Shown here: positions 2,730 to 5,084 of the stretch, piece by piece
How positions within the stretch are numbered: the stretch's first letter is position 1
Layout of the letters: each line of letters begins with the position of its first letter
Assembly: GCF_003334815.1 (NCBI RefSeq)
Contig: NZ_QOWO01000011.1
Strand: one strand, 5' to 3'
DNA length: 64,000 nt
Source of the DNA: Escherichia coli
Lineage (GTDB): Bacteria; Pseudomonadota; Gammaproteobacteria; Enterobacterales; Enterobacteriaceae
The notes under the pieces: generated by a model
Database searches by the model: none
Seen by the model: the letters and a program-made list of their open reading frames with translations, nothing else
What the model was told of the DNA's origin: nothing
Program-made: the position numbers and the translations under genes

Positions 2730-2928
2730 AATTATAATAAATATTATTGTTGAGTGTTATATTATTATTCCTGTGTGATACATTGAGCAAAGACGCGTTC
2801 ATCTTCGTCAAAGATATTATTAAATGCTGGTTTTGAAAAAAGTTCATCGGATAAGATATAGTCACGAAATAAGTATCTGCTAATATTTTATGATTTCTTT
2901 TTCAGAACGTCGAACGGGATTTTCTTAT

Positions 2929-3084
2929 TTAAGATATCAGAATCTTATGATTCGGGTAAAATTCTAAATAAATCAACATGTCATTAAAATCATCATAGCC
3001 ATTAGCTATTTCGGCTAAAATAGAGACTACATGTCTTCGGTCCATCTCACTTAAGGAGTGTAGTTCCGTTGTAAGTTTTTCCAT
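2929..3084 (-). CDS. Hypothetical 51-aa ORF in the AT-rich spacer (may correspond to the small ORF annotated between yrhA and yrhB in K-12; uncertain)
   Basis: Hand-translated from the minus strand: ATG at 3082-3084 to TAA at 2929-2931, MEKLTTELHSLSEMDRRHVVSILAEIANGYDDFNDMLIYLEFYPNHKILIS; below the ORF-track length cut-off; no clear SD. Confidence 0.25.
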   Translation of the reverse strand: MEKLTTELHSLSEMDRRHVVSILAEIANGYDDFNDMLIYLEFYPNHKILIS

Positions 3085-3178
3085 AGCTTGCACTGCTAAA
3101 TTTCGAACAAGGAATTTTCTGCTGGTAATCTCTAAAAAGATGGCATGGTTTACAATGATTTTTGTTTCCTTTTGATTA

Positions 3179-3673
3179 TTATGAACAACTGTCCATGATT
3201 TCGTTTAAGAATGAAGAGAAATCACTAAACGAACTGAATATATTTTCTGTGCCAATATTATCTCTAATTTCAAAAAAGTTACTTTTAATGTCATAAGTAA
3301 ATATTGAAATGCTATAATCCCCGATCACTAACCGTTCTTGTAGATCAGGGTTTATGAAATCATCATTATTTCTATAAAATTCATTTACGGCAAAAAGGTT
3401 TTTAACTGAAGGTTCTGGAATCGAGAGGCTAAATAATCGTAATCCATTAACTTCGAATCCATCCATTGCTCTTAAAAAAGTAAGATAATCAGGTTGATTC
3501 TTAAAAAGAATACTAACTTCATTACATAACTTCTCCAGGCAATTAGTTGAATTAGAATTAAATTCTATTTGGATTATACTTTCAATAAATGATTCCTTGA
3601 GCGGTGCTTCAAATGGATAGTCTAAATCATTCATCATTTTTATTAATTTATTTATTTGGGTTTTAGTCATCAT
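3179..3673 (-). CDS. yrhA: Putative cognate immunity protein of the Hcp-HNH nuclease (intact yrhA-type gene)
   Basis: 164-aa acidic cytoplasmic-type protein with no signal peptide or TM segment; its ATG (3671-3673) overlaps the yhhZ stop (ATGA overlap), the usual toxin-immunity arrangement; same AT-rich composition as yhhZ. Confidence 0.7.
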   Translation of the reverse strand: MMTKTQINKLIKMMNDLDYPFEAPLKESFIESIIQIEFNSNSTNCLEKLCNEVSILFKNQPDYLTFLRAMDGFEVNGLRLFSLSIPEPSVKNLFAVNEFYRNNDDFINPDLQERLVIGDYSISIFTYDIKSNFFEIRDNIGTENIFSSFSDFSSFLNEIMDSCS

Positions 3674-4848
3674 TTTGTGTGGTCCATAATATTTTTCATG
3701 GGAGGATAAATTGAGCCAGATGGAATGGCCCAGGGAGTGATTTTGCTTTCACCTACTAATATTCCCTTAGCTATTCGTGATTGCATGTTAGTAAAAACTT
3801 TATGATATGGTTCGTTTTCGATTAATACTAAATTTTCGAAATCATTAGTACCACCATCATCTAGAGATAGTTTATGGTGAACATTATAATTTAGAGGAAC
3901 ATTGCCCTTTCTCATTCTTAAAAGGTCTTCGGCGTTGAATCTTCCAGATGCTTCGGAGGTTTTTGCAAGTTTGATAAGAAAATTTTTTCTTACAGTTTTA
4001 TTAAACTCCTTTCGTAAGTTAGCTAAGTCTTTTGAAGGTCTCTTAATGTATATTATTTCTATTATGTCTATACCATCAAGAAGTTTTTGTTGACCTCTAA
4101 GTTTGCCTAAGTAACTATTTATTTCTGTATATGTATCAACATTAGAACGCTTTGTTAAAAGAATAGATGCTGTTGCTATCGCTATGCCCGCTGTTTTTTC
4201 ATTTAGTATTTGATCATAGCCTTTTATTGCATCTCCACCCAGTTTTTCCGCAGTATCTCTGAATCCTTCAATGTTCCCATTGTATACGCCACCAGCAGCA
4301 AGTAGCCTGCCAATAGCTTTGCTGTTTAACGTTTTGAAACGATTATTTGTTTGGTTTTTTGAATTTGGTAAAAACAAACGGTTATAATTTTCAGGGAGTG
4401 CCAAATAGCTGAACTCGGTATTTGCGATAAGATGTTGACAGAGGATAAATTCATAACTAATAGTTATTGTTTCTGTATCCAGTTGGTTTTCAATGATCTG
4501 GTGATGAATAGCCGATAAAAAAGCGCCTCTTAGTTGTATATAATAATACTTTTCCAATCTACCAAATCTATTTATTCGATAGAAGTCAAATCCCATAAAT
4601 AATTGTTCATTATTGTTAATGGAATTAATAAATAATGGAGTGCTTTTATCAATTAATTTACAAAATGTTATACCATGGAACTGTGAACCAAGCCCCGTAT
4701 TATTAATATTATTTAAGAGTGAGAATGTAAATATTTCATCCTCATGCCCGCTCTGCCAACGATTACCTGTAGACTCAGAAGTCCCACAACCTGCGGAGAT
4801 GCTTCCTTGTTGTTCTCCCGTTACTGTCAGGTAAACAATATTACTCAT
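3670..4848 (-). CDS. yhhZ: Hcp-family (T6SS tube-like) N-terminal domain fused to a C-terminal colicin-DNase-like HNH nuclease; polymorphic toxin of the Hcp-ET class
   Basis: 392 aa; residues 1 to about 155 show an Hcp-like pattern (VYLTVTGEQQGSISAG ... HGITFCKLIDKSTPLF ... FDFYRINRFG); residues about 320-350 carry an HNH motif NVHHKLSLDDGGTNDFENLVLIENEPYHKVF resembling the colicin E9 DNase core; region is AT-rich. Confidence 0.85.
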   Translation of the reverse strand: MSNIVYLTVTGEQQGSISAGCGTSESTGNRWQSGHEDEIFTFSLLNNINNTGLGSQFHGITFCKLIDKSTPLFINSINNNEQLFMGFDFYRINRFGRLEKYYYIQLRGAFLSAIHHQIIENQLDTETITISYEFILCQHLIANTEFSYLALPENYNRLFLPNSKNQTNNRFKTLNSKAIGRLLAAGGVYNGNIEGFRDTAEKLGGDAIKGYDQILNEKTAGIAIATASILLTKRSNVDTYTEINSYLGKLRGQQKLLDGIDIIEIIYIKRPSKDLANLRKEFNKTVRKNFLIKLAKTSEASGRFNAEDLLRMRKGNVPLNYNVHHKLSLDDGGTNDFENLVLIENEPYHKVFTNMQSRIAKGILVGESKITPWAIPSGSIYPPMKNIMDHTK

Positions 4849-5052
4849 CCCTGAAAAGTCCTTTTATGGCATGCTATTTTATCAATGGCAATATTATGCT
4901 TGTTAATTGTTATTTATTTACTCCAGGAAATTGTAGGCGTATATATTAAAAAATAAAATATTACACTTTAGGAAGTAATTATGAGTTAAATCTCAATATA
5001 TGTATTGGGCAAATAAATACCTTAAAGGAAGGTATGTCGATTTTGAATGACA

Positions 5053-5077
5053 CCCTTTTTCCATCTCAGAAAAAGGG
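5053..5077 (-). terminator. Candidate terminator hairpin downstream of yhhY
   Basis: Inverted repeat CCCTTTTT-ccatctcag-AAAAAGGG immediately 3' of the yhhY stop on the minus strand. Confidence 0.35.
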
Positions 5078-5084
5078 CACTATC

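Follow-up and report, generated by a model that had tools for sequence, protein, structure and literature searches.

The AT-rich islet between yrhB and yhhY in an Escherichia coli contig corresponds to the yhhZ-yrhA (Hcp-ET1/ETI1) toxin–immunity locus and is most likely an orphan cassette

The stretch of DNA analysed here, called the window, consists of 64,000 nucleotides of contig NZ_QOWO01000011.1 from the Escherichia coli assembly GCF_003334815.1, and it contains an AT-rich islet at positions 2730–5084, between the genes yrhB and yhhY. The islet is very probably the E. coli yhhZ-yrhA(-yrhD) locus, i.e. the Hcp-ET1/ETI1 effector–immunity pair of a type VI secretion system (T6SS), which is an orphan in this window. 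A sequence-only reading had described the islet as an Hcp–HNH nuclease toxin gene with a coupled immunity gene, and this observation is correct, yet the pair is already known and is not new. The assignment is carried by the domain identities of the two proteins, the intact nuclease motif of YhhZ, the immunity-type fold of YrhA, the constant linkage of the toxin to a YrhA-family gene and the match between this locus and that of the published pair.

YhhZ of the window is identical to YhhZ of E. coli K-12 (NP_417899) in 392/392 residues, and it shows 391/392 identical residues (99.7%) to WP_000065896.1, the protein encoded at the same yrhB-yhhY site in enteroaggregative E. coli 55989. The same accession is found at yrhB-yhhY in the O104:H4 strain C227-11, and the tag published for Hcp-ET1 (AAF13_24945) points to this locus of C227-11. 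According to a preprint, an orphan Hcp-HNH protein of Shiga toxin-producing E. coli O22:H8 strain 154 shares 99% identity with the Hcp-ET1 protein found in C227-11 and 55989 and has ETI1 adjacent to it, and the formation of hetero-hexamers is proposed there. The 'Hcp-ET1-like' gene of strain 154 is also located between yrhB and yhhY, and its product is identical to YhhZ of the window at 389 of the 392 residues, with 163 of 164 for YrhA. As summarised in four reviews (PMC6730261, PMC6099711, PMC9990079 and PMC5471719), Hcp-ET1 inhibits growth via a predicted HNH-DNase activity, and in the summaries of two of them (PMC6730261, PMC6099711) its delivery is T6SS2-dependent and the toxin is neutralised by ETI1. 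Reviews of Ma et al. 2017 further state, in summary form, that cognate immunity proteins have been characterised for five Hcp-ET classes, and binding and neutralisation of the cognate toxin by ETI1 are cited in a preprint and in a review table. The pair had been called poorly characterised in the sequence-only reading, which does not hold for a toxin this close to the protein of a characterised locus and for a system described in reviews. The placement in the Hcp-with-extended-toxin class stands, with an Hcp N-terminus joined to an HNH C-terminus in a near-identical copy of the protein at the Hcp-ET1 locus. YhhZ already figures in the work of Blondel et al. 2009 (PMC2907695) on the 'evolved Hcp', and it belongs to group 32 in the His-Me finger classification of 2017. 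Literature searches on the two genes gave no experimental study of the K-12 YhhZ or YrhA proteins.

The N-terminal part of YhhZ is matched by NCBIfam TIGR03344 (Hcp1) over residues 1–147 with 118 bits, where the cut-off is 58.9, and by Pfam T6SS_HCP (PF05638) with E=2.5e-11, and Hcp chains in the PDB match it down to 2e-11, which bears out the Hcp-like N-terminus first suggested for the 392-residue protein. The Hcp beta-barrel fold is also matched by the predicted structure of YhhZ, in a region modelled with low confidence from an alignment of 21 sequences, so that this match can be taken as supportive only.

Between the Hcp and HNH domains lies a middle region that travels with the HNH domain and is conserved from P152 onward across proteins with three unrelated N-termini. 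It has no match in Pfam, and in the YhhZ model it is predicted as helices of low confidence at residues 176–230, with confident prediction from about residue 250. The region might have a pre-toxin or translocation role. A membrane helix was also considered for this region and is not supported, the maximum Kyte-Doolittle hydropathy being 1.18.

The residues H324, H325, D330, D331, N335, N339 and H349 are invariant in alignments of 31 and 21 homologues with 36–97% identity. YhhZ of the window alone gives a weak match to Pfam HNH (E=0.013, residues 322–343), and because this single-sequence match is weak the HNH assignment needed family-level evidence. The Pfam HNH model is matched at E<=0.1 by 29 of the 31 family members and at E<=0.001 by 5 of the 31, the best value being 2.3e-5, and the modelled C-terminal domain is structurally similar to solved HNH nucleases. 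The domain shows kinship with the nucleases of colicins, pyocins and Rhs2. On this conservation YhhZ is well supported as a putative HNH nuclease whose active site is intact, and the description of the nuclease domain as 'degenerate' (PMC2907695) is not borne out by the pattern of conserved residues. The domain had been called a colicin-type HNH nuclease, and the HNH motif with its invariant residues is confirmed. The colicin type is weakly supported, as none of the 31 family members matches the Pfam colicin/pyocin DNase models (PF21431 and PF12639) at E<=0.001 and PF21431 (Col-Pyo_DNase) gives a non-significant E=1.9 against YhhZ of the window. Distant matches are obtained with the family profile, which reaches the DNase chains of pyocin S2 and colicin E7 with E-values of about 4-7e-4 and ranges from 4e-4 to 6e-3 over the pyocin S2, colicin E7, E2 and AP41 DNase chains, and the colicin label may at most describe such a distant relationship.

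The gene following yhhZ codes for YrhA, a protein with a predicted isoelectric point (pI) of 4.31 and 25 D+E against 13 K+R residues, and its reading frame shares 4 bp with that of yhhZ, the sequence ATGA at 3670–3673. YrhA itself is not matched by any Pfam model, the SUKH models included, and it scores 122 bits against the NCBIfam 'YrhA family' NF038335, a small family with 61 representatives among 1.8 billion proteins. The more distant members lead to the SUKH group, as among 39 aligned YrhA relatives 7 are matched by SMI1_KNR4, 5 by SUKH_6 and 3 by SUKH_5 at E<=0.001, and the YrhA family profile matches the structure 2icg with E=0.0016; YrhA has the alpha+beta fold of the SUKH proteins. The acidic immunity-type gene of 164 codons, coupled to the toxin gene by a 4-bp overlap, was in these respects correctly recognised from the sequence. 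A YrhA-family gene is located directly 3' of the toxin gene in every sampled context, namely E. coli, Citrobacter koseri, Enterobacter and Pantoea, and the downstream genes in Citrobacter, Enterobacter and Pantoea score 121–127 bits despite the differing N-termini of the toxins. Such a linkage is the signature that a cognate immunity gene leaves in genomes.

Features of the islet and its border in the window. Coordinates are those of the 64,000-nucleotide stretch, and residue numbers refer to YhhZ unless otherwise given.
Feature	Position	Strand	Remark
AT-rich islet (yrhD, yrhA, yhhZ and upstream region)	2730..5084	.	Fills the entire yrhB-yhhY intergenic space
yhhZ (annotated tssD / Hcp-ET1), 392-aa Hcp-HNH fusion toxin	3670..4848	-	From the list of open reading frames
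Hcp (TssD) tube-protein domain, aa 1-150	4399..4848	-	
Conserved middle region, aa 151-280	4009..4398	-	Gly/Ala-rich helical segment (GRLLAAGGVYNGN...) and beta segment
HNH (His-Me finger) nuclease domain, aa 281-392	3673..4008	-	
Catalytic HNH motif H324-H325 ... D330-D331 ... N335 ... N339 ... H349	3802..3879	-	From homologue alignments
yrhA (ETI1), 164-aa acidic SUKH-fold immunity protein	3179..3673	-	Start codon overlaps yhhZ stop codon (ATGA)
Unoccupied IS1E target site (TTTAATGTC), yrhA codons 128-130	3284..3292	.	MG1655 BLAST pieces overlap by exactly 9 bp
yrhD, 51-aa acidic open reading frame 3' of yrhA	2929..3084	-	RefSeq genomes annotate it as 'protein YrhD'
Non-coding region upstream of yhhZ, presumably with the promoter	4849..5084	-	AT-rich; role presumed
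yrhB, 94-aa acidic protein, Pfam Imm35 family	2445..2729	-	Outside the AT-rich islet, at the same variable site

The islet has a G+C content of 31.8% compared to 52.6% in the rest of the window, 52.9% in the left flank (1–2729) and 50.9% in the right flank (5085–10000), and it is the single G+C minimum among all segments of 2355 bp (mean 51.8%, standard deviation 3.8%). The difference had been estimated by eye as about 30% against about 50%, and the computed values agree with this. In composition the islet is foreign to the rest of the window. In alleles with an empty site the left homology ends just beyond the yrhB start codon and the right homology resumes at the yhhY stop codon, and the islet takes the place of a yrhB-yhhY spacer of about 110 bp; the region at 4849–5084 is included in the insert relative to these alleles. 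The borders show no meaningful direct or inverted repeats, and no transfer RNA gene or integrase gene is found at the islet.

A consensus promoter scan of the islet gave 15 promoter-like sites compared to 12.7 ± 3.2 in shuffled sequences, i.e. no enrichment, and a terminator scan of the islet gave no convincing candidate. Two predicted promoters, yhhZp5 and yhhZp7, are cited in PMC12428005, and 'promoter islands' bound by H-NS are listed inside both yhhZ and yrhA in Table 1, based on chromatin immunoprecipitation, of PMC3661553, which fits the 32% G+C of the islet.

The window is collinear throughout with an annotated genome of enterotoxigenic E. coli (ETEC), with no indels and 99.8–99.95% identity. 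Comparison with K-12 MG1655 covered positions 488–8711 and 14211–64000, and the first of these segments is 100% identical to MG1655 save for one difference, the insertion sequence (IS) IS1E, while the second has 9 mismatches and 1 gap (99.98% identity), and the window is therefore not MG1655 itself. The 768-bp IS1E that splits yrhA in MG1655 is absent from the window, where its 9-bp target TTTAATGTC is present once. With IS1E and one copy of the target duplication missing, the window has an intact yrhA, which in the K-12 reference is a pseudogene. MG1655 on the other hand has an intact yhhZ beside its IS1E-split yrhA.

According to the transferred annotations there is no tssB/C, vgrG, clpV or tssM gene in the 64-kb window, and the annotated genes from yhhA to hofM are housekeeping genes only, plus the 'tssD' that corresponds to yhhZ. 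The earlier statement that nothing else in the 64 kb resembles T6SS machinery is borne out by these annotations and by the ETEC and K-12 comparisons. Such an absence of core genes does not exclude YhhZ from the Hcp family and is typical of 'orphan' Hcp-ET genes. The K-12 and B laboratory strains are reported to have no T6SS genes (PMC6730261), and from this report and the 64 kb of sequence the apparatus is probably absent altogether in the lineage of the window. As the sequence is K-12-like over the compared stretches and K-12 reportedly has no T6SS, the islet is most likely an orphan cassette, located in H-NS-bound DNA.

In strains with the apparatus, the Hcp domain should allow YhhZ to be packed into, or assembled along with, the Hcp tube of a T6SS, reported to be T6SS2; such an incorporation into the tube is what the domain would predict. 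Contraction of the sheath would then fire YhhZ into a neighbouring bacterium, where the C-terminal nuclease of the HNH (beta-beta-alpha-metal) type would degrade the target DNA, and YrhA, expressed from the overlapping downstream gene, would bind and block the nuclease in the producer and its kin. In the lineage of the window, if it has no T6SS, the toxin would not be deliverable, and yrhA, being intact, could still shield the cell from Hcp-ET1 that other E. coli fire. Silencing by H-NS would explain how K-12 tolerates an intact yhhZ beside a split yrhA.

In a collection of 5426 complete E. coli genomes, with the islet counted at >=80% coverage, it is present in 3758 (69%) and missing from the remaining 31%. 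Sheath genes of the T6SS-2 type, searched with tssBC of O157:H7 Sakai (L019, 26237–28438), are present in 2280 of the 5426 genomes (42%). The ggt-yhhY site occurs in several states, with ggt directly followed by yhhY (L012), with yrhB between them (L010), with a DUF4225 gene coding for 303 residues in O157:H7 (L011), with the full islet, and in IS-disrupted forms, one of which (H1) has an IS1 within yhhZ itself. In O157:H7 a T6SS is present and the islet is absent. Compared to the window, the islet in the divergent background of ETEC4079 (L020) is nearly identical, with a proportion of synonymous differences (pS) of 0.012 in yhhZ and 0.022 in yrhA, while the flanks have pS values of 0.16 (yrhB) and 0.43 (yhhY). 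Because pS is low in the islet and high in the flanks, movement by recombination of the islet or of the flanks is suggested, that is, the near-identical islet may have spread by recombination or its flanks may have been replaced.

A pair of Hcp-HNH and YrhA genes with about 70% identity is found at the same yhhY/ggt site in Citrobacter koseri (L015, 10001–11657), without yrhB or yrhD, which would mean either that the insertion is older than the separation of the two genera or that the site is a shared hot spot. For the HNH part the ratio of non-synonymous to synonymous substitutions (dN/dS, omega) between E. coli and C. koseri is about 0.14, pointing to long-term constraint. The cluster of full-length YhhZ proteins is by far the largest with 13190 members, and truncated forms are found in other clusters beside it (P0002, P0004, P0007, P0012, P0013, P0094 and P0116).

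Several observations weigh against the reading of the islet as the Hcp-ET1/ETI1 pair. There is no T6SS core gene within 64 kb, and the counts of 3758 and 2280 genomes imply that at least 1478 of the 3758 islet carriers have no sheath genes of the T6SS-2 type, a lower bound from counts in a set that includes many laboratory K-12 derivatives and in which carriers may have other T6SS types. The Hcp half of the full-length YhhZ structure model has low confidence. Within E. coli, yhhZ of the window and of ETEC4079 differ by 12 non-synonymous and 3 synonymous changes, giving an omega of about 1 from small counts; an omega of 0.15 is incompatible with these counts (P = 6e-4), and the value fits relaxed constraint as well as it would fit diversifying selection. 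The RefSeq tags of C227-11 are AAF13_RS24945 for yrhA and AAF13_RS24950 for tssD, and the locus tag AAF13_24945, given for Hcp-ET1 in the summary of a review, coincides in the RS numbering with yrhA and not with tssD, i.e. with the adjacent gene of the same locus. Toxicity, DNase activity, immunity and T6SS2 dependence are all taken from what reviews relate of Ma et al. 2017 (Virulence 8:1189).

Some of these observations would also be expected if the islet were a decaying relic, without current function in T6SS-less lineages, surviving only through its silencing by H-NS and disappearing through mutations, insertions of IS elements and deletions. Decay of this kind would be reflected in the IS1E in yrhA of K-12 and the IS1 in yhhZ of another strain, in the many clusters of truncated YhhZ, in the within-species omega of about 1, in the empty-site alleles and the 31% of the genomes without the islet, and in the islet being commoner than the T6SS-2 sheath genes (3758 vs 2280 genomes). 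The window, however, has both open reading frames intact, the full-length YhhZ cluster (13190 members) is by far the largest, the catalytic residues are invariant across genera, and the pair occupies the same site in C. koseri with a dN/dS of about 0.14 in the HNH part; moreover, an intact yrhA may serve as a defence against neighbours firing Hcp-ET1. A relic is for these reasons possible but rather unlikely as an explanation of the islet as a whole, and the reading as an Hcp-ET1/ETI1 pair is preferred.

The sequence-only reading had also allowed for an addiction or self-DNA-damage module, and a T6SS-independent role of this toxin–antitoxin-like kind, with YhhZ acting in the producer and YrhA needed continuously so that the islet is stabilised, would agree with the translationally coupled operon of a toxin and its antidote, with the orphan status, and with the presence of the toxin cassette on N-termini other than Hcp, isolated in Enterobacter and within a conjugative element in Pantoea, a setting in which stabilisation could be expected. 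It is disfavoured, since K-12 lives with yhhZ intact and yrhA disrupted and since spontaneous deletions of yhhZ-yrhA are viable (bioRxiv 10.1101/2024.10.07.617030). The K-12 argument is strong but not absolute, as the truncated K-12 YrhA of about 130 residues may keep activity. The order of the genes, with the toxin first and the immunity gene second, is that of polymorphic toxins, YrhA is of the SUKH type, unlike labile antitoxins that have a DNA-binding domain, and the Hcp domain would be left without a role, all of which makes an addiction module highly unlikely. Even less probable is an anti-phage abortive infection system in which the HNH nuclease is freed from YrhA upon infection. The AT-rich variable site with its other immunity-type genes would suit such a system, HNH nucleases are common defence effectors, and in some Enterobacter contigs a related module is found beside integrase and phage-capsid genes. 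Yet no PADLOC match was obtained at E<=0.1 for YhhZ, YrhA, YrhD, the DUF8093 relative or the Pantoea relative, no sensor or NTPase component is present, and an Hcp domain with a SUKH partner is the hallmark of interbacterial toxin systems.

The toxin part of YhhZ is not confined to Hcp proteins. From P152 on, the middle region and the HNH domain are common, at 50–70% identity, to proteins of about 380 residues in Enterobacter, Leclercia, Pantoea, Erwinia and Serratia, the N-terminus of which is DUF8093 (PF26362; protein clusters P0019–P0112). The DUF8093-form toxin genes are each followed by a YrhA-family gene and form isolated two-gene modules, and no T6SS gene was found within 8 kb of the Enterobacter pairs (L006–L009, 8001–9663). 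DUF8093 was also considered as a divergent Hcp domain and was rejected, with an hhalign probability of 0.1% and no sequence match in the PDB. A third N-terminus with a YrhA-family partner occurs on a Pantoea dispersa contig (L016, 8001–9581) amid genes of a conjugative element, with TraC_F_IV, TraG-D_C, DUF3438, DUF2895, RAQPRD and an integrase; this N-terminus has no Hcp match in Pfam and shows no similarity in alignment. The Hcp form of the cassette is found in Escherichia and Citrobacter. The occurrence of one cassette on at least three N-termini is the ordinary behaviour of polymorphic toxins. That the C-terminal cassette of about 240 residues and its YrhA-family gene constitute a mobile toxin module not tied to the T6SS is unlikely, but if true the module could have a T6SS-independent role or delivery, e.g. 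conjugation-linked or intracellular, and DUF8093 could be a new trafficking domain.

The islet contains three open reading frames on the minus strand, yhhZ, yrhA and yrhD, of which the first two were described correctly in the sequence-only reading and the third, yrhD, was overlooked. YrhD has no family match, searches with PADLOC and NCBIfam being empty, and all its homologues come from entries of E. coli or Enterobacteriaceae; one divergent strain has a shorter 'hypothetical protein' annotated in its place. A fragment of a longer immunity gene was considered for yrhD and rejected, as none of the homologues is longer.

Next to the islet, yrhB (G+C 45.6%) matches Pfam Imm35 (polymorphic-toxin immunity protein 35) with 4.6e-23 over the full length of the model. 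It is annotated in K-12 as a 'putative heat shock chaperone', has no adjacent toxin gene, is present in some genomes that lack the islet (L010) and is missing from others (L012). With yrhB as an Imm35 protein, the ggt-yhhY site appears to accumulate toxin and immunity genes. The flanking genes yrhB and yhhY, named from the sequence, were confirmed from annotated genomes, and the order of the neighbours is yhhA (105–545, minus strand), ggt (638–2407, plus strand), yrhB (minus strand), the islet, and yhhY (5085–5573, minus strand), then yhhX, yhhW and gntR. The sole Rfam match is outside the islet and is the iron-responsive small RNA RyhB at 5724–5788 on the plus strand, about 150 bp past yhhY (RF00057, 83 bits, gathering score 55), and the K-12 annotation has RyhB at the corresponding place. 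The Bacillus subtilis genes yrhA and yrhB (mccA/mccB) are not known to be related to the E. coli genes, with which they share only their names. A genomic-island paper of 2012 (PMC3309015) assigns 'yhhZ-yrhAB' to methionine-to-cysteine conversion, citing B. subtilis, and this appears to be a confusion of gene names.

As a finding in this window the islet matters little and opens no long-standing question. Some interest is left in why an intact nuclease toxin stays in about 69% of the complete E. coli genomes, many of them without the system reported to deliver it, in whether it is the intact immunity gene that selection retains, and in the grafting of the same toxin–immunity cassette onto non-Hcp N-terminal domains, the last being the only part that might be new.

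The closest known system is Hcp-ET1/ETI1 of STEC004, O104:H4 C227-11 and enteroaggregative 55989, which is the same pair at the same yrhB-yhhY site, with Hcp and HNH domains followed by an immunity gene for 164 residues; in contrast to these strains the lineage of the window is K-12-like over the compared stretches and reportedly lacks the delivering T6SS2. Compared to the K-12 reference copy, in which yrhA is split by IS1E, the gene is intact here. With the DNases of colicins E7 and E9 and pyocins S2 and AP41 the toxin shares the HNH (His-Me finger) core, about 65 aligned residues including the motif, and an immunity gene immediately downstream, but YrhA has a SUKH fold where the Im proteins have a four-helix fold, and delivery would be by fusion to Hcp and not by receptor-binding and translocation domains. 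In the Serratia marcescens Rhs2-CT HNH endonuclease with RhsI2 (PDB 9t38) and other Rhs/PAAR-HNH effectors the toxin is C-terminal on an Rhs cage loaded on VgrG/PAAR, whereas the toxin of YhhZ is carried on Hcp. Unlike the SUKH (SMI1/KNR4) proteins YobK of B. subtilis, Lin2918 of Listeria (2icg) and RhsPI (8bd1), YrhA belongs to a small separate family, NF038335. Usp, or Hcp-ET3-4, of uropathogenic E. coli (PMC2907695) has, like YhhZ, an Hcp N-terminus and a bacteriocin-like nuclease C-terminus, is located away from T6SS clusters and is followed by immunity genes.

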